Virus record (IMG/VR): IMGVR_UViG_2740892236_000005
DNA length: 11,239 nt
From: a virus
Lineage: Duplodnaviria > Heunggongvirae > Uroviricota > Caudoviricetes
Direction: 5' to 3' (one strand)
Part shown: positions 698-11,239 of the stretch, piece after piece
How positions within the stretch are numbered: position 1 is the stretch's first letter
Layout: the number at the start of each line of letters is the position of its first letter
The notes under the pieces: model-generated
Database searches by the model: none
What the model saw: only the letters and a program-made list of their open reading frames with translations
What the model was told of the DNA's origin: nothing
Program-made: the position numbers and the translations under genes

Positions 698-1060
698 GGG
701 GCTGATTCTGGATTCGACGGGATTTGCGAAACCCAAGGTGCATGCCGAGGGGCGGTTGGCCTCGTAAAAAGCCGCAAAAAATAGTCGCAAACGACGAAAA
801 CTACGCTTTAGCAGCTTAATAACCTGCTTAGAGCCCTCTCTCCCTAGCCTCCGCTCTTAGGACGGGGATCAAGAGAGGTCAAACCCAAAAGAGATCGCGT
901 GGAAGCCCTGCCTGGGGTTGAAGCGTTAAAACTTAATCAGGCTAGTTTGTTAGTGGCGTGTCCGTCCGCAGCTGGCAAGCGAATGTAAAGACTGACTAAG
1001 CATGTAGTACCGAGGATGTAGGAATTTCGGACGCGGGTTCAACTCCCGCCAGCTCCACCA
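698..1060 (+). ncRNA. ssrA: tmRNA (transfer-messenger RNA, SsrA), 363 nt
   Basis: 5' end GGGGCTGATTCTGGATTCGACGGG at 698, internal tag reading frame, and 3' tRNA-like end GGTTCAACTCCCGCCAGCTCCACCA finishing at 1060. Matches the enterobacterial tmRNA sequence from memory. Confidence 0.95.
787..819 (+). other. tmRNA tag-peptide reading frame (ANDENYALAA plus stop)
   Basis: GCAAACGACGAAAACTACGCTTTAGCAGCTTAA translates to ANDENYALAA followed by a stop, the canonical proteolysis tag encoded within tmRNA. Confidence 0.9.
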
Positions 1061-1979: not shown

Positions 1980-3080
1980 TTATTCCATTTCAAGATCATC
2001 AATCTTCACTTCGAGTTCAATACTGGTTGTAAAACCGTTATCTGGGCTGACGGTATGTGTCAGAGTCGTAATGGTCCATTCCGCATCATCTATCGGCTGT
2101 TTAAAACCACTGACCTTCACAGGCATTTCCGTGTAGAGATCTGCCCGCCCTTCCGCCAGTTGTAGCGAGAATGACGCAACGCCACGTTGCAGGCGTTCCC
2201 ACTGCATTTTCGCTGCCCGTTCAGCGTTGCTCCGGTTGGCATAAGTGCGATTAAGTACCAGCACGTTTTCATCCGTCCCCACCAGGTAATCGCCCTGCTT
2301 CGCTTCCGGCTCTTTCTTCTGCTTCTTAGTCCTGCGCTTACGCTTCACCGTAGTGCTTTCTTTCTTCGCGGGTTCGCGGGTATGCAACCAGCTGGCAATT
2401 ACCCCCGTGTAAGCTCCGCGATCTGCCAGGGTAAAGCGGTGACTGTCGCCGTCCTTACGTGCGATAGTAATCACCGGCAGTGGTTTACCGCTGGCGCTTT
2501 TGCCCTGTCCCTGCCGGATGAATAACAGATTGCCATTTTTCACCGATGCAATGGCACCGTACTGGCGCGCCAGCCGCATCAAAAAACTGCCGTCACTCTC
2601 ATTAGTCTGGTCTATATGCTCCACGGGCTTATCCGACAGGTCTTTACCCAGTGCCATCTTCAGCTTGTGCCGCGCGGCTATTTCCTTCACCACTTCCCCG
2701 ATGGTGGTGTTATGCCACGATTTTTCACGGCGGGTATTCAGCGTTTCCCGAAAATCAGCACTTCGCGCCCGGATAGTCAGGCGGTCCGGTGCGCCAGTGT
2801 GTTCAATCTCGTCCACCGTGAATGCCCCTTTCGGGAAAAGCGGCTGCCCCTTCCAGCCCAGCGCCAGCGTAATGACCGCACCACGGCGCGGCAGCACGAT
2901 TTTTCCGTCGGCGTCGTCCAGCTCCAGATCAAGCTGGTCCGCTTCAAAGCCCCGGTTATCCGTCAGCGTAAGCCCCATCAGGCGTTTGTCCAGCACAGTG
3001 GTGATATCCTTCCCCTCAATACTGATGCTGAATGCGGGAGTTTTGTTGCCTTTGTTAAGCAGTTCAGAGCTGAAATTCAC
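1980..3080 (-). CDS. D: P2 gpD-like tail protein (late control gene D family)
   Basis: 366-aa ORF in the position and size expected for P2 gpD, last gene of the tail operon before ogr. Its ATG overlaps the U stop (ATGA), indicating translational coupling. Confidence 0.85.
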   Translation of the reverse strand: MNFSSELLNKGNKTPAFSISIEGKDITTVLDKRLMGLTLTDNRGFEADQLDLELDDADGKIVLPRRGAVITLALGWKGQPLFPKGAFTVDEIEHTGAPDRLTIRARSADFRETLNTRREKSWHNTTIGEVVKEIAARHKLKMALGKDLSDKPVEHIDQTNESDGSFLMRLARQYGAIASVKNGNLLFIRQGQGKSASGKPLPVITIARKDGDSHRFTLADRGAYTGVIASWLHTREPAKKESTTVKRKRRTKKQKKEPEAKQGDYLVGTDENVLVLNRTYANRSNAERAAKMQWERLQRGVASFSLQLAEGRADLYTEMPVKVSGFKQPIDDAEWTITTLTHTVSPDNGFTTSIELEVKIDDLEME

Positions 3081-3562
3081 GACAGCAGCCCTCCCACCGT
3101 TTTACTGATATCGCTTAAGGCAGACGTTGCCGTATCCTGCAAATTATTCAGCTGCGCACTGAGATCACCGAACATATCGGACATGGATTCATCCACCCGT
3201 TTGAGCGACAGGGTAAACTCAATCCGGCGCGGCATACCATCGCGGAAAAACTCCGTTTTAGTCTGATTCAGTCCCTCAATCACATACATGCCGTAAATCG
3301 TGCCGCTGCCTTCAATCAGGGGCCATGCTTTTCCCTGTTCTGCCATCTGCTCCAGAGCCAGCAACGACAGCCTGCCGCCCGTTATCTCCGGCATAAGAAC
3401 ACCAGAAAGCGTCAGCATGTCGTTGTCCGGTCCCAGAAATTGCGTGGACGGACGACGGTTTACCCGGCTGTTTTCCGCATGTCGCCAGCTGCGTTGATAC
3501 TGCAGTTCCTGATACGGAACGGTGCGCAGCATAAACACGTACAATCCCAGCACCATCATCAT
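3077..3562 (-). CDS. U: P2 gpU-like tail protein
   Basis: 161-aa ORF between T and D with ATGA overlaps on both sides; size and position match P2 gpU. Confidence 0.85.
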   Translation of the reverse strand: MMMVLGLYVFMLRTVPYQELQYQRSWRHAENSRVNRRPSTQFLGPDNDMLTLSGVLMPEITGGRLSLLALEQMAEQGKAWPLIEGSGTIYGMYVIEGLNQTKTEFFRDGMPRRIEFTLSLKRVDESMSDMFGDLSAQLNNLQDTATSALSDISKTVGGLLS

Positions 3563-6500
3563 GCGTCGTATCCCCCCTGATCGCTGTAGTTACTCCTGGC
3601 TTTTGCCTTCAGCCTGCGTTCACGTTCATCAAGCTGGCGTGCCACCTCCCGCGCAATATCCTGCGCACTTTGTCCTGGCTGCGTCTGAATGATGATCTGC
3701 GTCGGTGCCTCAATCCGGTGAACGGGCGGTACAGTAGCTGCACGACTCACCATCGCTTCGCCGCCTTTCGCGGGAAGTGCCAAAGGATGCAATGGTGGAA
3801 GCTCTGCAGGCGCGGCAGCAACGCCCATCATTCCGGCAACAACGGCAGCCAGTGCAGCTGTATTTCTCCGGCTGGTCACATTTGCCGGGCCGTTAACAAT
3901 TTCCGGCCCGTTTTCACCGACGATGCCAAACTGCCCGCGCGGGATATAGCCGCCGCTGTCATACATCCCCGCAAAGCCATATCCCCATGACGGAAAACCA
4001 CCCGGTGGCATCATCACTTTACCGTCTGCATTCACCGTCGCAGGTTGCTGACGCGTCACGCTTTCCGGCAGTTTCGCCTTTGCAGCCTCTTTACTGACAA
4101 TGCCGAGTTTCTCCAGCAACCAGGAAACGCCGGATTTCAGGGAGTCCAGCGGATGCATGACCATATTCAGCCCTTCCGCCAGTGCCTCCCCGAATCGTCG
4201 CCCCATTGCCGCTGCACTCTGCAGTTCGGCAGAGGTCGACTTAACGGGCGTCAGCAGATCAGTAAACCAGCCCCACAGCGCCTGTACTTTGTCGCCAATC
4301 CACTGGAACACGGGCTTAAGCGGTTCGAATGCTGCACTGACGGGACCTGCCGCCGCTTTGAATCCTTCCACTACGCCACCAAGAAATGCGGTGATGGGTT
4401 GCCAGTATTTCCAGACAACCAGCGCCACGCCCGCCAGTGCAGTAACCACAAGACCTATCGGACTGAGCAGAGCACCTAACAGACCAGATACGGCATACAG
4501 GGCAACGCGCAGCATCGCCAGTGGACCAGATGCCAGTACTCGCAGCACCGTGCCTGCGGAGGCCAGTCCACCGCGCAGTACCGCCAGAGGATTCATAAAC
4601 ATCACAGCAACAGCACGTAAACCGGATAATCCAGACCGCAAAAGTGCAACCGGCGCACCTGCTACAGTTTTCAGGACATTTCCCGTCAGTGATGCCGTGC
4701 GGCGCAAAGACGACAACGGCGCAGTAAGTAAACCTGCGGCGTTGCCCGATGAAGCAAGCCCGCGTCGCAGCAGTGCAAGTGGTGCGCCAGCCAACCAGGA
4801 CAACGCGCTGCTGGTTCGCGTTACTGCTGCCGTAACGGAAGGTAACGTTTTGATACCCAGCACAGAGAATCCCAGACGGATGACTGCCAGCGGCCCCAGC
4901 ACAGCAGCCAACACCACAGCCAGGGTGCCGAGGCCCACAGTAACAGCAGCCACAACCGCGGCTACTTTCATCAGTGTGCCCGTCAGTTCAGGGTTAGCTT
5001 CTACCCAGCGACGCAACGCCCCCGTGATGCTTTTCACCGTGTACAGAATATCCATCAGCGGCTGGCGCAGCGTTTCGCCCAGGCTGCTGAAGGTGTTCTG
5101 CGCTCCGGTTTTGACCAGCAACCACTGCGCAGAAAGTGAGTCCTTGTTAATGTCGGATTCTTTCTGCATCGAACCGAGCGCATCATTGCCCGCTGTCAGT
5201 TTTAGCTGGCGCTGCAGTTCCGGCAGGTTGTTTGCCAGTTTCGCCGCATCATCGCCAAACTCTTTACCAAACAACATGGTCATGGCAGACAGGCGCTTAT
5301 CCTGCGGCAGTGCGTTCACCTTCTCCAGTACGCGCTGGATAGTTCCCATCGCATCCTTCGTCATCTGCTTTTCAATCACTTCAGGATTGAGTTTCAGCAG
5401 ATTCATTCCTTCAAAGAAACTCTTGCTTTGCATGGTCGCAATGGACAATTCACGCACCATCGCGTTGGCAGCACTGGCAGCGACCTCCGGCGCAGCCCCC
5501 AGTGTCAGGAAGGTGGAACCCAGCGCCGCCGCTTTACGATAATCCAGACGATCAGCCACACCGCCCAGGCGTTGCATGACATCAATGATGTCTGCCCCTT
5601 TCGACATAGCGTTATCATCCAGATAGTTCAGCGCATCACCGAGCTGTTCAATATTGCGGGTTGGTATTTTGTAGAGCTGGGCGATTTTCCCCAGACTTTC
5701 TGACAGTTCATCCGCTGGCAGCTCAAAGGCTGTTGCCGCCTTTGCTGCCGTACTGGCGAAGGCCAGCAGGTCACGTTTCTGGTCCTCCCAGCTGTCGTCA
5801 GGGTTTGCCACATTCATGCGCGCACCACCTTCAACCAGTGCGGCGAAGTCCACAGCACCGTTTTCCATTGGCAGCTGTTCACTGGCAGCTTTGATGGCAT
5901 CCTGCATTTCGTAAAAACGCGCAGTGCGGTTGCCATTATCGTCACGCAGACCATTGACCTGCTTTGCCACACCTTTCATGGCATCTTCCATGCTGGTATA
6001 GCTTTTTACCGCCGCCATCACTGGCGCGCCCATTGCCAGCCCTGCAGCCGTGGTGGTGGCTCCGGCTCCTGCGATGCGATCGCGCACTTCAAGCCGTCTT
6101 GAGTATTGTTCTCTGGCAGCGTTCATCCGTGCCTGTTGTTCACCCAGACGTTTAAGTGCTTTTTGCTGGCCCTCCAGTGCATGACGAGTTTCTTCGGCAT
6201 TTTTCTTAAGTTCTCGCTGGGCACTACTGAGTTGTCTGGTATCAATCCCTGATTCTTTAAGTGCCTGACGTTGTCTCTGGACCGCCCCCAACAAGCCGTT
6301 ATAGGTCTGCTGAAGTTCCTGTACTCGTGTTTTGGCCTGACTGAATAACTTTGCCTGCGCGGCGGTTGGCCTGTTAGTGGCAGCAAATTGTGTGGCGAGT
6401 TTTGCCGCCTCTTCGCGGGCTGCGTTCAGGTTGTTGGCTGTTATGGCTAGTTGCGAGCGCGTCTTGCGAAATTCATCAATTCTGCCAGCCTGCTTATTCA

Positions 6501-6636
6501 GTTCTTTGAGGCTGTTTCGGGTATTCTGAATTGCGCCAGCCAGCTCTTTCGAACTGGCCTGTGCAGCACGGAATGGGCGGGTGAGTTTGTCAACCGCATT
6601 AAGAATGACCTGCAGGCGCAGGTTATTATCACTCAT
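3559..6636 (-). CDS. T: Tail tape-measure protein (P2 gpT-like), 1025 aa
   Basis: Very long ORF with a coiled-coil-like, Ala/Gln/Lys-rich N-terminal region and a central run of hydrophobic Gly/Ala/Leu repeats (...GAPLALLRRGLASSG...GAPVALLRSGLSGLRAV...PLAVLRGGLASAGTVLRVLASGPLAMLRV...), typical of tape-measure proteins. Located between E/E' and U as in P2. Confidence 0.9.
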   Translation of the reverse strand: MSDNNLRLQVILNAVDKLTRPFRAAQASSKELAGAIQNTRNSLKELNKQAGRIDEFRKTRSQLAITANNLNAAREEAAKLATQFAATNRPTAAQAKLFSQAKTRVQELQQTYNGLLGAVQRQRQALKESGIDTRQLSSAQRELKKNAEETRHALEGQQKALKRLGEQQARMNAAREQYSRRLEVRDRIAGAGATTTAAGLAMGAPVMAAVKSYTSMEDAMKGVAKQVNGLRDDNGNRTARFYEMQDAIKAASEQLPMENGAVDFAALVEGGARMNVANPDDSWEDQKRDLLAFASTAAKAATAFELPADELSESLGKIAQLYKIPTRNIEQLGDALNYLDDNAMSKGADIIDVMQRLGGVADRLDYRKAAALGSTFLTLGAAPEVAASAANAMVRELSIATMQSKSFFEGMNLLKLNPEVIEKQMTKDAMGTIQRVLEKVNALPQDKRLSAMTMLFGKEFGDDAAKLANNLPELQRQLKLTAGNDALGSMQKESDINKDSLSAQWLLVKTGAQNTFSSLGETLRQPLMDILYTVKSITGALRRWVEANPELTGTLMKVAAVVAAVTVGLGTLAVVLAAVLGPLAVIRLGFSVLGIKTLPSVTAAVTRTSSALSWLAGAPLALLRRGLASSGNAAGLLTAPLSSLRRTASLTGNVLKTVAGAPVALLRSGLSGLRAVAVMFMNPLAVLRGGLASAGTVLRVLASGPLAMLRVALYAVSGLLGALLSPIGLVVTALAGVALVVWKYWQPITAFLGGVVEGFKAAAGPVSAAFEPLKPVFQWIGDKVQALWGWFTDLLTPVKSTSAELQSAAAMGRRFGEALAEGLNMVMHPLDSLKSGVSWLLEKLGIVSKEAAKAKLPESVTRQQPATVNADGKVMMPPGGFPSWGYGFAGMYDSGGYIPRGQFGIVGENGPEIVNGPANVTSRRNTAALAAVVAGMMGVAAAPAELPPLHPLALPAKGGEAMVSRAATVPPVHRIEAPTQIIIQTQPGQSAQDIAREVARQLDERERRLKAKARSNYSDQGGYDA

Positions 6637-7065
6637 CGTTGGCCCCGCTTCTCTGAATCGCTTTATACCGCCATTCCAGCACTTCGGTCAGCGGCATAAC
6701 GTCAGTAACGGATGGCGGCCAGTGAAAGATGGTGGCGATATCAGCCACCAGATCGTCAACCGTCAGGCTGTCGGTAAACCGGCAAGCACCGACTTCTTCA
6801 ACAAAAAAGTGACAACCTCAACCGACATGGCAGTGAGATCTGCCGGGTCCATCTCTACAATTTCCTGTGCAGTCAGTGCCGGACTGGAGATGCGGGGGAT
6901 CACGGTCATCATCGCGTTCACATCCATATCCATAATGGCCTGCAGGCGCGTACCGCGCAGCGCACCGGACTGCGGTTTACGCAGCACAATTTCGGTGATT
7001 TCTGTTTTACCGCGCTTGATGGGGGTATCCAGTTGAATAGTCTTTTCAGTCTGCTTATCGCTCAT
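6629..7065 (-). CDS. E+E' fusion product made by programmed -1 ribosomal frameshift (tail assembly chaperone, long form, about 145 aa)
   Basis: Hand translation from the slippery heptamer T-TTT-TTG (minus strand, 6808-6802) in the -1 frame gives an open extension ...VEEVGACRFTDSLTVDDLVADIATIFHWPPSVTDVMPLTEVLEWRYKAIQRSGANDE ending at TGA 6631-6629. That stop overlaps the T start codon (6636-6634), the same geometry as P2 E/E'. Confidence 0.7.
6763..7065 (-). CDS. E: P2 gpE-like tail assembly chaperone (short form)
   Basis: 100-aa ORF (MSDKQTEKTIQLDTPIKRGKTEITEIVLRKP...VTFLLKKSVLAGLPTA) between FII and T. The slippery heptamer lies near its 3' end. Confidence 0.88.
   Translation of the reverse strand: MSDKQTEKTIQLDTPIKRGKTEITEIVLRKPQSGALRGTRLQAIMDMDVNAMMTVIPRISSPALTAQEIVEMDPADLTAMSVEVVTFLLKKSVLAGLPTA
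6802..6808 (-). promoter_or_regulatory. Slippery heptamer T-TTT-TTG for the E/E' -1 frameshift
   Basis: Plus strand CAAAAAA at 6802-6808 is minus-strand TTTTTTG, read in the E frame as ACT-TTT-TTG (T-F-L). Same heptamer class as reported for P2 E/E' and many tail-chaperone frameshifts. Confidence 0.7.
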
Positions 7066-8959: not shown

Positions 8960-9526
8960 TCAGGGGGATTCATTGATCTTATTTGCCGGAAATTTTCTAT
9001 AAATGGTAGAAACGCCTACATCAAAAATCAGTGCAATACGCTGTCTTGATTCTCCGGCCTCGAGTAAACGCCCAATCTGTGCCCACTGTTCGGTGGTCAA
9101 CTTAGGACGGCGTCCACCTACTCTGCCTTTGGCACGAGCTGCAGCCAGCCCTGCCCTGGTACGTTCAACTATCAGTTCGCGTTCCATTTCAGCCAGGGCA
9201 CCCATGACATGAAAAAAGAAACGGCCCATTGGGGTACTGGTATCAATACTGTCAGTCAGGCTTCTGAAATTCACACCACGCTGGCGCAACTCTTCTATCA
9301 GCGTAACAAGATGTCGCATACTGCGCCCCAACCTGTCCAGCTTCCAGACAACCAGCGTGTCTCCTGCCGATAGTGTCCTGAGTAGTTTTTTCAGCCCCGG
9401 TCTGTCGGACTTAGTGCCACTGATTTTGTCCTCAAAAATCCGCTCACATCCCGCGCAGTTCAGTGCATTACGTTGCAAATCGGTGTTCTGGTCATTTGTT
9501 GACACGCGTACATAGCCAATAAGCAT
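8960..9526 (-). CDS. Serine DNA invertase, Gin/Pin/Cin/Hin family
   Basis: Translation MLIGYVRVSTNDQNTDLQRNALNCAGCERIFEDKISG...LVVWKLDRLGRSM...GRRPKL...STIYRKF has the invertase N-terminal catalytic motif (YVRVST, active-site Ser) and a C-terminal HTH, and is very close to Pin/Gin-type invertases as I remember them. The Shine-Dalgarno AGGGGG is positioned for the second ATG (9526), giving 188 aa; the ORF track starts two codons earlier at 9532. Confidence 0.9.
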   Translation of the reverse strand: MLIGYVRVSTNDQNTDLQRNALNCAGCERIFEDKISGTKSDRPGLKKLLRTLSAGDTLVVWKLDRLGRSMRHLVTLIEELRQRGVNFRSLTDSIDTSTPMGRFFFHVMGALAEMERELIVERTRAGLAAARAKGRVGGRRPKLTTEQWAQIGRLLEAGESRQRIALIFDVGVSTIYRKFPANKINESP

Positions 9527-9581
9527 GATCATCCCCCTGAATAAAAACCGGAGATGATGCCAGTTAGCTGTTACCTCTGCA

Positions 9582-9607
9582 TTTTCTTAAACGTTGGTTT
9601 GGGAGAA
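9582..9607. other. Left recombination (crossover) site of the invertible segment, gix/hix/cix-like
   Basis: TTTTCTTAAACG-TT-GGTTTGGGAGAA is an imperfect 12-2-12 palindrome. Its right half matches the gix right half GGTTTTGGATAA (recalled from memory) at 10 of 12 positions. The inner 13 bp GGTTTGGGAGAAG (9596-9608) recur as an exact inverted copy at 11227-11239. Confidence 0.65.
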
Positions 9608-9949
9608 GCGGCAAAAAGGGATGTTGGGATTGGGGCAAATCAGATCCCTGATATGAGCAAATGGACATCGCTGAAAGCAGATTACGGGTGGCGGTTGACT
9701 CCAGATGGATTTCTGGAGCAATGGGGGCGCGGTAATTATGGAAACGGCGATGGAGATTTTGTCATCCCATTCCCGAACCGTTGTGCGTTCGTTTTAATTA
9801 GCTCGGATCCGAATGACACGTCATATGCCGAGATTTCACAGGCATTCCCTGTCAGCAACTCAAAATTCAGGGTTGGCTGCGCAACGGCAGAGGGTAATAA
9901 CGTTAATCCGGCAAATTTGACATGTAACTGGTATGCGAAGGGATGGTGA
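9594..9949 (+). CDS. Silent alternative tail-fibre C-terminal cassette (Hv'), promoterless in this orientation
   Basis: The frame is open through the crossover site (ggt ttg gga gaa = GLGE) and continues AAKRDVGIGANQIPDMSKW...NWYAKGW to a TGA at 9947-9949. It is in the same codon phase relative to the 13-bp repeat as the expressed fibre on the other side, so inversion would fuse it in frame to the constant fibre N-terminus. The track's ATG at 9554 is probably not a real start. Confidence 0.6.
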
Positions 9950-9951
9950 TA

Positions 9952-10155
9952 ATGAATATTTACTTTTATAGCGCGTCAACGAATCAATTTTACCCGACAG
10001 TGTTACTCGACGCATACCGTGGAAATGGCGTTTTGCCTGATGATATTAAGCCCGTCGATGACGATATGGCTCTGAAGTTTTTAGGGGCTCCTCCGGAGGG
10101 AATGAAACGAGCGGCGGGTAGCAATGGGCTACCCACGTGGGTAATGGTAAGCTAG
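9952..10155 (+). CDS. Short (about 67-70 aa) tail-fibre assembly protein N-terminal domain (Tfa'), possibly a truncated remnant
   Basis: MNIYFYSASTNQFYPTVLLDAYRGNGVLPDDIKPVDDDMALKFLGAPPEGMKRAAGSNGLPTWV matches the conserved N-terminus of one tail-fibre assembly family, but the frame stops at TAG 10153-10155 without the usual C-terminal half. An alternative ATG lies at 9943. Confidence 0.55.
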   Translation: MNIYFYSASTNQFYPTVLLDAYRGNGVLPDDIKPVDDDMALKFLGAPPEGMKRAAGSNGLPTWVMVS

Positions 10156-10769
10156 ACGTACAGTTCAGGCCAACTGATATCCGGTGCGGTGCTGGTATCA
10201 GTTGCCGTCACCGCGTCAATGTAATCCAGCACGACGTTAAGCCGGGTGGTTTCTGTCTGCGTCAGTTTTCGCCCGGCCTGCAATTTCAACTGAATCAGAT
10301 TAATGGAAGCCATTGCAGTATCAATCAGCGACTGGCGTTGTGTTTTTGCCGCTTCTACAGCGGCACGATGTTGCGCATCTGTATCGGTCACCCATTTCTC
10401 ACCATCCCATTCATCGTATGGCGTTAACGGTGCGACAGTGGTTGTGTTTTCAGGGTAATCACCCGGAGTGGTGATTTCTGCTGCCTCACGGGTTTCTGTG
10501 TTATAGACTGTCTCACCCCGATGGTCCGGCACGTACTCCCACGTGGTCAGGTCAGCAGTGCGGCAAATCACATAACCAGACCGCCTTTCCCCGGGGGCAT
10601 CAGTGCATGAATGTGCAGGAAGGCCAACGCCTACAGCCAGATATTCGGTTGACGTGTAAAGGTATTCCCGCGTCTTATTATCGTAGCTGTGGACAACAAC
10701 CTCTCCTGCAACTGTTGCCAGCCGCGATTCATTCAGCACCGCTGTAGTCATGGTTTTCTTGCTCATCAT
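10152..10769 (-). CDS. Tail-fibre assembly protein (Tfa, lambda-Tfa-like; positional equivalent of P2 G), expressed orientation
   Basis: 205-aa ORF whose C-terminus (...RLNVVLDYIDAVTATDTSTAPDISWPELYV) matches the conserved Tfa C-terminal motif (VDTSTAPDIEWP in lambda Tfa). Its start overlaps the fibre gene stop (ATGA). Confidence 0.85.
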   Translation of the reverse strand: MMSKKTMTTAVLNESRLATVAGEVVVHSYDNKTREYLYTSTEYLAVGVGLPAHSCTDAPGERRSGYVICRTADLTTWEYVPDHRGETVYNTETREAAEITTPGDYPENTTTVAPLTPYDEWDGEKWVTDTDAQHRAAVEAAKTQRQSLIDTAMASINLIQLKLQAGRKLTQTETTRLNVVLDYIDAVTATDTSTAPDISWPELYV

Positions 10770-11239
10770 GCAGCCCTTACGATGTAGTTAAATGCAATGT
10801 TACGTGGCCTTGCATAACCCAGATACTGAATCCCCCAGGCTCCCACTGGAACGGGGTTCCAGATATGTTCTGTAGGTATACTTTTCGCTCTGAGAATATC
10901 TGAATTGGTTTCAGTTTTATCCCATCCCAGCAGGGCAATGTCGTTTACCGAAAACTGCACCACGCTGTCGGGTGATATATTGGCTTCCTGAACCAGATAA
11001 GAGCCTTTTTGCCACGACAACAACGTCCGGCTACTGTCCACTCCGCGCCCGTCATCCCAGCCACGAATAAATTCACCACGTAAATCAGGCAATATATTTG
11101 TCGGATAAGCCTTTGCCAGTTCCGGGTATTCTTCAGCAGAAAATGCCGCCCCGTTGCATTTCACCCAGCCTGTTGGCGGTGTGGCTGAAGGCCACGGAAC
11201 AGGTACACCAACGGGTAATGCAGAGCCTTCTCCCAAACC
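10766..11239 (-). CDS. Tail fibre protein, variable C-terminal receptor-binding part (expressed orientation); 5' part of the gene lies beyond the window
   Basis: The frame runs to the window edge (GLGEGSALPVGVPVPWPSATPPTGWVKCNGAAFSAEEYPELAKAYP...NYIVRAA), with the PWP...GW..C.G...YP motif seen in many tail-fibre C-terminal domains (P2 H, Mu S). The track's start at 11236 is a window-edge artefact. Confidence 0.8.
   Translation of the reverse strand, partial: GLGEGSALPVGVPVPWPSATPPTGWVKCNGAAFSAEEYPELAKAYPTNILPDLRGEFIRGWDDGRGVDSSRTLLSWQKGSYLVQEANISPDSVVQFSVNDIALLGWDKTETNSDILRAKSIPTEHIWNPVPVGAWGIQYLGYARPRNIAFNYIVRAA
11227..11239. other. Right recombination (crossover) site of the invertible segment, inner half only (truncated by window end)
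   Basis: Plus-strand CTTCTCCCAAACC at 11227-11239 is the exact reverse complement of GGTTTGGGAGAAG at 9596-9608. The core and outer half must lie just past position 11239. Confidence 0.6.

Follow-up and report, generated by a model that had tools for sequence, protein, structure and literature searches.

The DNA analysed here, a stretch of 11,239 nucleotides that we call the window, holds the right end of a P2-like (Peduoviridae) E. coli prophage that lies beside ssrA and is apparently intact. It carries an invertible fibre segment with the following features (coordinates are window positions; loci used for comparison bear our own L numbers).

8960..9532, minus strand: serine DNA invertase of the Gin/Pin/Cin/Hin type, intact (Resolvase 180.6 bits, HTH_7 57.5 bits)
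9554..9949, plus strand: Hv', the silent alternative fibre tip (PF21882, Gp53-like_C, 43.7 bits against a cut-off of 24.9)
9583..9609, no strand: left crossover site, TTTTCTTAAACGTTGGTTTGGGAGAAG, which pairs with the right site as a 27-nt inverted repeat in L002
9937..9943, plus strand: Shine-Dalgarno-like purine-rich GAAGGGA, 8 nt upstream of the ATG at 9952, read from the sequence
9952..10155, plus strand: Tfa', short form, 67 aa, N-domain only (phrog_188, N-domain HMM, AF2, homologue lengths)
10152..10155, no strand: CTAG common to both convergent stop codons, read from the sequence
10152..10769, minus strand: Tfa of the currently expressed cassette, full-length (Caudo_TAP 106.9 bits, residues 84-202)
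10766..11239, minus strand: Hv, the variable C-terminal part of fibre gene H, in expressed orientation (collar domain PF07484, 54.1 bits)
11227..11239, no strand: right crossover site, of which the core CTTCTCCCAAACC is visible, 13 nt, before the window end cuts the site

The 13-nt crossover core is visible twice in the window, positions 9596-9608 pairing with 11227-11239. The full 27-nt pair is present at 3043-3069 and 4688-4714 of L002, a prophage identical to that of the window, in which PGAP labels the equivalent of the invertase 'recombinase family protein' and in which gene H, running past the window end here, encodes 507 aa at 4227-5750. The core TTGGTTTGGGAGAAG is the repeat of the e14 P segment as quoted in PMC12529663. 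Because the reading frame through the core (GGT TTG GGA GAA G) is the same in H and Hv', inversion yields an in-frame H::Hv' fusion. Both orientations occur in nature: the cassette is silent in L003 and fused to H (393 aa) in L014, with the same small-protein allele and the half-sites exchanged; L014 represents an L003-like prophage after the flip. Fused H::Hv' forms of 393-397 aa are present in L014, L019 and L006, and the cassette stands in expressed orientation in L006, L014, L016 and L019. The minus-strand Tfa, 205 aa as its longest ORF and 199 aa from 10751 in the PGAP call, matches phrog_105 (E 4.8e-89) and the C-domain HMM (E 2.3e-16). Its 97.8% homology to ordinary E. coli alleles ends at about 10165, and its last four codons read ELYV, as against the usual APPEA/LPEA ending; E. 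coli 720632 carries the same right-hand Tfa allele as the window. Promoter-like sites between 8800 and 11239 are at chance level (2, against 2.6 expected from shuffled sequence), and neither a terminator nor a promoter was found at the junction of the convergent stops.

Both convergent ORFs described in the earlier note, 9943-10155 on the plus strand and 10152-10769 on the minus strand, are present in the window. The 70-aa Tfa' that it read from position 9943 holds as an ORF and not as a gene start: most likely the gene begins at ATG 9952 and encodes 67 aa, since the homologues all begin at the equivalent methionine (MNIYFY, MTIYLY or MSKYAYS), PGAP gives 67 aa in E. coli MARGA_3, and GAAGGGA is suitably placed upstream. 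PGAP leaves the 67-aa ORF unannotated in the identical E. coli prophage. The stop codon of Hv' (TGA, 9947-9949) precedes the start of the small gene by 2 nt, a gap kept in all close loci, and this spacing suggests that translation of the two genes would be coupled. As had been described, the convergent stops share CTAG, the plus-strand gene ending in TAG at 10153-10155 and the minus-strand stop being the reverse complement of CTA at 10152-10154. It is likewise confirmed that no plus-strand frame takes up Tfa-like sequence past 10155, the C-domain HMM matching only the minus-strand Tfa in the window; the plus-strand ORF at 10137-10427 has no Pfam match. A C-domain placed in another plus frame or in an adjacent split ORF was also considered, and the six-frame HMM search of the window and of L007, L038-L040, L043 and L044 found none. 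The sequencing error near 10150 that the earlier note had allowed for can be set aside, as the same junction recurs in the independent assemblies L002, L003 and L014, and homologous junctions occur in about 16 further assemblies. Among the close loci described below, the 4-nt stop/stop abutment is found in 16 of 19, as CTAG, CTAA or TTAA; a functional palindrome is rejected on the grounds that the tetranucleotide varies while the geometry is kept. In more distant lineages the two genes lie 12 nt apart or overlap by 32 nt, or a convergent gene is absent.

The Hv' tip extends for about 112 aa past the crossover and ends in ...LTCNWYAKGW. It had been described as short, and the length stands, but the size is normal for the group: at 131 aa, the silent Hv' ORF of the window equals that of phage 500465-1, where Tfa' is full-length. 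Further, we scanned with Pfam the tips that precede short and long members of the family, and all match PF21882, one of them (that of phage 500465-1) at 24.2 bits, slightly below the 24.9-bit cut-off. Gp53-like_C as the determinant of a short or a long Tfa was rejected, since both classes follow Gp53-like_C tips. The lead-in 'NQIPDMS' was rejected as a tip motif diagnostic for a short partner, the Cartapus/613R3 tips with NQIPDMA or NQIPDIN pairing with full-length Tfa.

To which part of Tfa the short protein corresponds is clear from several comparisons. Its PHROG matches are phrog_188 ('tail fiber assembly protein', E 2.8e-15) and, over the whole length, phrog_19350 (E 9.7e-11; residues 1-67 align to positions 1-68 of 70). 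With Pfam PF02413 (Caudo_TAP) it reaches 14.2 bits (E 0.049), short of the cut-off of 22.1, and covers positions 3-55 of the 131 in the profile. When the N-domains of 80 full-length relatives (first 68 aa each) were made into an HMM from which short forms were left out, this matched the 67-aa protein at E 1.8e-27 over positions 1-65, and its homology to the N-domain of two-domain Tfa proteins is firm at the level of sequence. AF2 models the 67-aa protein with a pLDDT of 95.7 and the topology b-b-a-b-a-b-b, the last strand at residues 61-65; this is the N-domain topology of P0008, a 143-aa full-length relative in which the N-domain runs to residue 66 and is followed by a linker (67-71) and two helices (72-102 and 108-125). 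When aligned to full-length homologues, the comparison that the earlier note had proposed, the short protein ends at the domain boundary, four residues past an invariant Trp and within the interdomain linker. What it lacks is the C-terminal helical domain. The match between the family profile and Mu U (PDB 5yvq_B) is confined to the C-domain, positions 70-141 aligning to U 107-175 (E 6.5e-12), and the domain homologous to this part of U is absent from the 67-aa protein and gives no HMM match on the plus strand of the window. PMC9608196 gives the role of fibre binding to the N-domain of Tfa, which is variable, and those of trimerisation and of the key element in assembly to the C-terminal helical domain, which is conserved. 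The retained part had previously been taken for the conserved one; it is the other way round, the N-domain being family-specific and variable and the missing C-domain broadly conserved. Compared with solved structures, the N-domain model gave no significant match, the Mu Tfa N-domain included, and tip binding is for this reason proposed from the logic of the family rather than from identity of fold. The 67-aa gene lies directly downstream of its fibre tip, as Tfa genes do, and its diverged homologues occupy the same position.

Close loci carrying a Gp53-like tip together with a gene of 65-70 aa number 19 (about 20), from E. coli, Citrobacter youngae/braakii/pasteurii, Mixta and IMG/VR contigs. 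In all 19, the tip ends in ...LTCNW[YF]A[KR]GW and the 65-70-aa gene follows 2 nt on. Among seven database homologues, six are 67-70 aa long, and WP_052656902.1 (67 aa, 'tail fiber assembly protein') is 91% identical and sits at the same position in E. coli MARGA_3. Neither for this protein nor for phrog_19350 ('unknown function') did we find a described function or a study in the literature. The 15 distinct alleles of the short gene contain no stops, frameshifts or indels; they vary at 70 of 189 sites, distributed 22/15/33 by codon position, with a deficit of non-synonymous changes (binomial p 0.0007-0.002) and a dN/dS of about 0.2-0.35 at dS 0.3-1.5. The short gene is clearly less constrained than the tip, whose omega is 0.02-0.14, and this counts against a functional reading. 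The module is rare, being present in only 3 of 5,426 complete E. coli genomes, and no homologue above 60% identity was found in 50,697 deposited phage or 72,556 plasmid records, so that no proven viable phage with this exact module is known; the closest relatives inspected among the deposited phage records are full-length. Decayed relatives exist as well, namely a 121-aa chimera in L008/L009 that is broken inside the N-domain, and some family representatives end in frameshift-like tails. One locus, L006, is peculiar in that both cassettes share a nucleotide-identical tip inside a 465-nt inverted repeat, the two orientations differing solely in the C-terminal half of the small protein; inversion there would swap only the small protein. 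This one metagenomic locus is rearranged and contains both an acyltransferase insertion and the remnant of a Tfa C-domain, and its second small-protein copy lacks several near-invariant residues.

Beyond the close clade, we identified independent one-domain lineages (at most 50% identity) whose stops are real and lie inside contigs, all of them behind Gp53-like_C fibres: P0013 (67 aa; L034), P0028 (70 aa; Hafnia, L038 and L039), P0011 (71 aa; Serratia marcescens, L043) and P0121 (69 aa; S. proteamaculans, L044). In L039, L043 and L044 no invertase is present, and the one-domain homologue is the only Tfa-like gene behind the Gp53-like fibre. By HMM search, no C-domain lies in the flanking stretches searched, up to 4 kb on either side, in L007, L038-L040, L043 and L044. 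These non-invertible examples are prophages or MAG contigs and may not be viable. Natural family proteins of about 70 aa in related prophages, which the earlier note had named as evidence that would speak against a remnant, are found here at the sequence level. Taken over the best 150 family representatives at 50% identity, 29 are N-domain-only, defined by a complete N-domain, a tail of at most 30 aa and no C-domain, and at least 83 have two domains and a length of about 140 aa. The N-domain-only proteins make up about one fifth of the family's sequence clusters.

We consider it probable that the 67-aa protein is a functional, minimal tip-binding Tfa cognate to the Hv' tip. In the present orientation, H is fused to the collar-type tip and followed by the two-domain 205-aa Tfa; inversion at the 27-bp sites would fuse H in frame to Hv', with the 67-aa gene directly behind. 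The protein is a complete, independently folding N-domain from a Tfa family in which every member stands behind a Gp53-like_C tip. While the fibre is being made, it would attach to the C-terminal tip and serve as a minimal chaperone, as a retained cap or as both, the Hv' tip needing no Tfa C-domain. We infer tip binding, sufficiency for assembly and a functional alternative fibre. Among the options raised in the earlier note, a minimal domain that suffices is the best supported, albeit with the domain logic reversed, as it is the variable N-domain that is kept and the conserved C-domain that is lost. On the published model, which is centred on the C-domain, a protein without that domain may possibly be no chaperone at all. 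The 4-nt stop overlap would most simply be a scar, inherited from an old event in which the C-domain was lost as far as the stop of the convergent tfa. A historical deletion is indeed a plausible origin of the close clade, because the way the gene abuts that stop has the look of a scar; if this holds, the event is old and its product has been under selection since.

A deletion may also be read as the end of the story, in which a Tfa' of about 140 aa lost its C-terminal half, the 67-aa ORF has no function and the switch has one dead state. The two-domain majority of the family is in keeping with this, as are the full-length Tfa' genes (131-147 aa, overlapping the convergent gene by 29 nt) that take this place in phages 500465-1, Cartapus and vB_EcoM-613R3 and in E. 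coli 720632, the abutment of the junction on the convergent stop together with the altered last four codons of the convergent tfa, and the rarity of the module in E. coli. Against it, the same truncation point is kept in 15 undisrupted alleles from several genera at an omega of 0.2-0.35, the protein ends precisely at a domain boundary, the cassette occurs in expressed orientation, a one-domain homologue of at most 50% identity stands behind the fibre with no other Tfa-like gene in L039, L043 and L044, which are free of an invertase, and a genuine remnant, the chimera of L008/L009, looks quite different. A non-functional remnant with a dead alternative fibre, the first option of the earlier note, is accordingly disfavoured, and we regard it as very unlikely. 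Should the 67-aa protein instead be functional and insufficient, the activity of the C-domain would have to come from the convergent 205-aa Tfa or from the Tfa of another prophage. The C-domain is the widely conserved part of Tfa and is interchangeable between phages; the short gene faces a full-length Tfa with a C-domain in 16 of the 19 close loci, and several tfa genes per genome are common in E. coli (median of 1 tfa-matching place, up to 7). Yet after inversion the 205-aa tfa would run antisense to the late operon, in a region where promoter-like sites are no commoner than in shuffled sequence, its N-terminal part belongs to another family (phrog_105) and serves the collar-type tip, and the six loci named above have no C-domain within the up to 4 kb searched on either side. 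Supply in trans seems rather unlikely to us, and for the simple borrowing of another chaperone, the remaining option of the earlier note, we found no support.

The short protein might, on the other hand, be no chaperone but a lasting part of the mature fibre, a cap or adhesin subunit through which receptor recognition is modulated, with a tip that folds by itself. Analogy lends this some appeal: Mu Tfa remains on the fibre tip, bound through its N-domain, and assists LPS binding (PMC8174754, PMC10579305), and Alteromonas fibre chaperones behave as dispensable 'caps'. In its favour, too, the small protein evolves faster than the tip, and in L006 an identical tip is combined with small proteins that differ only in their C-terminal half; L006 is, however, one rearranged metagenomic locus whose second copy lacks near-invariant residues, and overall we judge a purely accessory role to be unlikely. 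A broader proposal, that N-domain-only Tfa proteins form a distinct functional class of retained caps or co-adhesins on Gp53-like tips and not of folding chaperones, and possibly the variable element of a host-range switch, is in our eyes a doubtful one. A minimal tip-binding Tfa remains the explanation that we prefer.

The existence of this class matters for the understanding of Tfa function. The model derived from Mu U and Pam3 gp25 has an N-domain that binds the fibre and a C-terminal helical domain that is essential for assembly and trimerisation. Here we have a natural class of Tfa reduced to the N-domain, which selection maintains and which in several loci is the sole Tfa-like gene behind a fibre. 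This leaves two options: some fibres can do without the C-domain, or the N-domain also serves the mature fibre as a cap or co-adhesin. Which of them holds has a bearing on the engineering of phage and tailocin host range, in which fibre tips are usually moved together with 'their' chaperone. If the class of caps or co-adhesins were real, a whole class of fibres would manage without the conserved Tfa C-domain, and an add-on of about 65 aa could tune host range. For annotation, short ORFs behind fibre genes should not be written off as pseudogenes.

Several known systems help to put the module into context. Mu U (TfaMu, PDB 5YVQ) and Pam3 gp25 follow the two-domain model, and full-length members of the window family share the layout of an N-domain and a helical hairpin; the window protein consists of the N-domain only and has no detectable similarity in sequence or fold to the N-domain of Mu U. 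The gp27-type proteins of Alteromonas phage A5/V22 and gp38 of the T-even phages are likewise small proteins that are encoded directly downstream of the fibre gene and may stay on the tip, a likeness to the window protein by position, with no homology shown. An anti-phage role such as that of e14 StfE2, a Gp53-like protein generated by inversion (PMC12529663), was considered and rejected: the prophage is apparently intact, its H is a late gene, and we saw no sign that it is expressed in the lysogen. The P2-like phages 500465-1 (Wadgaonvirus) and Cartapus (Elveevirus), which have invertible H tips and two full-length tfa genes, share with the window the gene order sheath-invertase-Hv'-Tfa'-Tfa-H; the invertase region of the window is about 97% identical to those of Cartapus and KP12. 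The Hv' ORFs of these P2-like relatives are 131-134 aa long and carry Gp53-like_C, and their Tfa' N-domains are homologous to that of the window (37-39% identical). Their Tfa' proteins, however, continue through a C-domain to 131-147 aa whereas the window Tfa' halts in the interdomain linker, and their convergent genes overlap by 29 nt where those of the window abut by 4 nt. The invertible segments of Mu (G, S/U and S'/U'), P1 (C) and e14 (P) also have an adjacent serine invertase (Gin, Cin or Pin), inverted crossover sites of about 26-27 bp inside the fibre gene, and two convergent cassettes, each made up of a tip and a downstream helper gene. Unlike in these segments, one cassette of the window carries as its helper a one-domain protein of 67 aa in place of a two-domain Tfa.

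The short plus-strand gene tfa′ does exist at the position described. It is no lesion, and its product belongs to a one-domain Tfa variant, so far unstudied, that goes together with Gp53-like fibre tips; a literature search found no paper on one-domain Tfa proteins. Beyond the tmRNA gene, the window is the minus-strand right arm of a P2-like prophage, with the invertible fibre segment running to the window end.

Features of the prophage arm and invertible segment
1-483, smpB, at the left end of the window
698-1060, tmRNA gene
1693-1956 (−), ogr (Ogr_Delta)
1980-3080 (−), counterpart of P2 D, by position
3077-3562 (−), counterpart of P2 U, by position
3559-6636 (−), counterpart of P2 T (tape measure), by position and the PGAP tail tape measure protein in L002, an identical E. 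coli prophage
6763-7065 (−), counterpart of P2 E, by position and the PGAP tail assembly protein in L002
7120-7635, tube, named after the PGAP annotation of L002
7645-8817, sheath, likewise named after L002
8960-9532, serine invertase (Resolvase and HTH_7)
9583-9609, left crossover site
right crossover site, cut at 11239, the window end

A 160-aa ORF between the tmRNA gene and ogr (1184-1666, +), which has a weak BRCT match below threshold (E 0.0011), is probably cargo at the prophage end beside the ssrA attachment site. The stretch 9540-11239 is 99.9% identical to the prophage of E. coli 23CRST047 and 23CRST049, in which the product of the fibre gene H has 507 aa and the invertible segment lies between the two copies of a 27-nt inverted repeat (TTTTCTTAAACGTTGGTTTGGGAGAAG and its counterpart). 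The crossover core TTGGTTTGGGAGAAG (window 9594-9608 / 11227-11239) is the same as the e14 P-segment repeat, which is inverted by PinE, PinQ and PinR alike (PMC12529663); thus, Pin recombinases of other resident prophages could flip the window segment in trans. The same study reports that StfE2, a Gp53-like protein arising through inversion, blocks T2 adsorption.

As the earlier note had described, the ORFs at 9943-10155 (+) and 10152-10769 (−) converge, and CTAG at 10152-10155 is common to both stops. Its further claim, that no plus-strand frame continues with Tfa-like sequence, was borne out: an HMM of the C-domain made from full-length relatives matches the minus-strand Tfa only, and the plus-strand ORF at 10137-10427 has no Pfam match. 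The same junction recurs in L002 and in two further comparison loci, L003 and L014, and is therefore not an artefact of a sequencing error near 10150. The short ORF stands; its proposed start, giving 70 aa, probably does not. The probable start is ATG 9952 (67 aa), judging from an equivalent Met in all homologues, a 67-aa PGAP call in MARGA_3 (WP_052656902.1) and GAAGGGA 8 nt upstream; in L002 the ORF has no PGAP annotation.

The product belongs to phrog_188 ‘tail fiber assembly protein’ (PHROGs; E 2.8e-15, profile positions 43-105 of 207) and matches end to end phrog_19350, a 70-position family of unknown function; its Pfam Caudo_TAP score is below threshold (14.2 vs 22.1 bits). A profile search against 1.84 billion representatives returned 317 relatives, the best 150 of which are bimodal in length, with peaks at about 140 and 70 aa. 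When Tfa′ was aligned to full-length members, its stop fell four residues past the single invariant Trp, after which those members go on into a linker rich in Pro and then a helical stretch that ends in ...WP..P. The AF2 model of the 67 residues is a compact β-β-α-β-α-β-β domain (pLDDT 95.7) with its last strand at 61-65, and P0008, a 143-aa relative, has the same N-domain to residue 66, then a linker and a helical hairpin (72-102 and 108-125; pLDDT 96.7). Neither of the two models has a significant counterpart in PDB fold searches. Mu U (PDB 5yvq_B) is matched by the family profile through the C-domain only (E 6.5e-12), and the literature ascribes fibre binding by Tfa to the variable N-domain and trimerisation and assembly to the conserved C-domain (PMC9608196). 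The description of Tfa′ as keeping only the conserved N-terminal part is thus reversed: the specific, tip-binding domain is kept and the conserved one is missing. The 78-position family phrog_3792 matches only the C-domain of the window Tfa (10155-10769, −; residues 127-203) and is the reciprocal half of the N-only phrog_19350, so stand-alone C-domain genes exist as well; together, the two families hint at split or modular Tfa systems.

Nor is the short gene a private accident of one prophage. Six of seven database homologues are 67-70 aa, and context look-ups and collection scans yielded 19 close loci from E. coli, Citrobacter youngae, C. braakii, C. pasteurii, Mixta tenebrionis and IMG/VR contigs, on P2-like backbones plus one with Mu-like baseplate genes. 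All 19 have a Gp53-like_C tip ending in ...LTCNW[YF]A[KR]GW, with a 65-70-aa gene beginning 2 nt on. The first 63 codons form 15 distinct alleles, free of stops and indels, in which 70 of 189 sites vary (22/15/33 by codon position). Pairwise dN/dS is 0.2-0.35 at dS 0.3-1.5 (adjacent tip, 0.02-0.14), and the non-synonymous deficit is significant in four pairs (binomial p ~0.001). In L006, L014 and L019 the short cassette is fused to an H gene that is complete (393-397 aa), and L014 is an L003-like prophage in the flipped state with half-sites exchanged. Of 5,426 complete E. coli genomes only 3 carry the module, and no close homologue turned up in the phage and plasmid records searched; the exact module is thus not known from any phage proven to be viable. 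L016:3492-5217, like L018, has its short cassette turned to the expressed side; the opposite cassette carries a glycine-rich (Gly_rich_2) tip and a different 143-aa Tfa, with the 4-nt abutment kept (TTAA). The invertase of this locus is broken up into two ORFs (4797-5081 and 4948-5217 in L016), apparently by either a frameshift or an assembly error.

The 4-nt stop/stop abutment is found in 16 of the 19 loci, spelled CTAG, CTAA or TTAA and facing three kinds of two-domain tfa; the geometry is therefore inherited, while the palindrome is not conserved. The related P2-like phages 500465-1, Cartapus and vB_EcoM-613R3 share the gene order of the window, with a full-length Tfa′ (131-147 aa) whose gene runs 29 nt into the convergent tfa. 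E. coli 720632 (L045:301-2386) likewise has a 138-aa Tfa′ and the usual 29-nt overlap, opposite a right-hand Tfa allele 97.8% identical to that of the window; its invertase is annotated as frameshifted and its fibre gene as partial, so this standard arrangement is locked there and decaying. Similarity of the window to ordinary Tfa alleles ends at about 10165, leaving the 205-aa Tfa with ELYV as its last four codons instead of the usual APPEA/LPEA. The simplest history is that an old event deleted the C-domain up to the convergent stop, and that the module of tip and short gene later spread and diversified under selection. A separate 73-75-aa form (L022-L024:3402-3710, +; 41% identical), behind another Gp53-like tip (...CYFRYIAIGS) and with a tail reaching 32 nt into the antisense of a convergent 145-aa tfa, seems to be a second, independent case of such a truncation.

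More distant relatives (≤50% identity) are also one-domain, with genuine stops inside contigs and again behind Gp53-like_C fibres.

One-domain relatives from the profile search
P0013, 67 aa, metagenome reads; L034, an invertible locus with a convergent 134-aa Tfa 12 nt away
P0028, 70 aa, Hafnia MAG; L039 lacks an invertase, L038 a second cassette
P0011, 71 aa, metagenome contig, cluster members named Serratia marcescens; L043, an HP1-like late operon
P0121, 69 aa, S. proteamaculans CP045913; L044

No Tfa C-domain occurs in the available stretches (up to 4 kb per side) of L007, L038-L040, L043 and L044. By domain content, the best 150 cluster representatives divide into 83 with the N-domain and a full C-domain, 29 whose N-domain is complete and followed by a tail of ≤30 aa, 30 with partial or other C-terminal regions, and 8 fragments. 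Gp53-like_C tips precede short and long members alike, and a tip lead-in motif was ruled out as diagnostic of short forms, as it does not discriminate. Seven representatives of 446-623 aa (P0018, P0060, P0091, P0116, P0117, P0122, P0136) carry the Tfa N-domain at about residues 300-545 and appear to be fibre-Tfa fusions, whether through read-through in gene calling or as genuine intramolecular chaperones. At two unrelated loci, Acyl_transf_3 genes adjoin a one-domain Tfa gene (L044:4285-5367; L006:4555-5631, there as cargo inside the segment, with a Tfa C-domain remnant at 4321-4467, −); these may be O-antigen-modifying morons tied to fibre modules.

Inversion at the 27-bp sites would join H in frame to the alternative tip Hv′: the frame across GGT TTG GGA GAA G is equal on both sides, and the fused form is present in L014. 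The late operon would then read H::Hv′ followed by the coupled 67-aa gene. We infer that the one-domain protein binds the Gp53-like tip as a minimal chaperone, a retained cap or both, and that such a tip can do without the helical C-domain. Dependence on a two-domain Tfa in trans, which tfa genes of other prophages may supply, is unlikely, since inversion would leave the convergent tfa antisense to the late operon and promoter-like sites occur only at chance level. That the protein is purely a tip accessory is rather improbable too. It draws on L006:3631-6311, where a 465-nt inverted repeat (96%) takes in the complete Gp53-like tip and about 31 codons at the start of the small gene, so that both orientations have the same tip and inversion would leave all but the C-terminal half of the 65/67-aa protein unchanged; this locus is, however, rearranged. 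Least credible, and very unlikely, is a dead remnant, as true decay of the short gene looks otherwise: unlike the window form, the 121-aa chimera of L008:3624-4366 and L009:964-1706 consists of N-domain residues 1-48 and unrelated sequence, broken inside the N-domain, and lies behind a Gp53-like tip of 124 aa and a Pin-like invertase, the element around it being e14-like, degraded and without an H gene.

Mu Tfa remains on the fibre tip and helps LPS binding (PMC8174754, PMC10579305). The one-domain variant is at odds with the view of the conserved C-domain as the essential part of Tfa, and the tip with its 67-aa gene offers a compact two-gene system in which to test that view.
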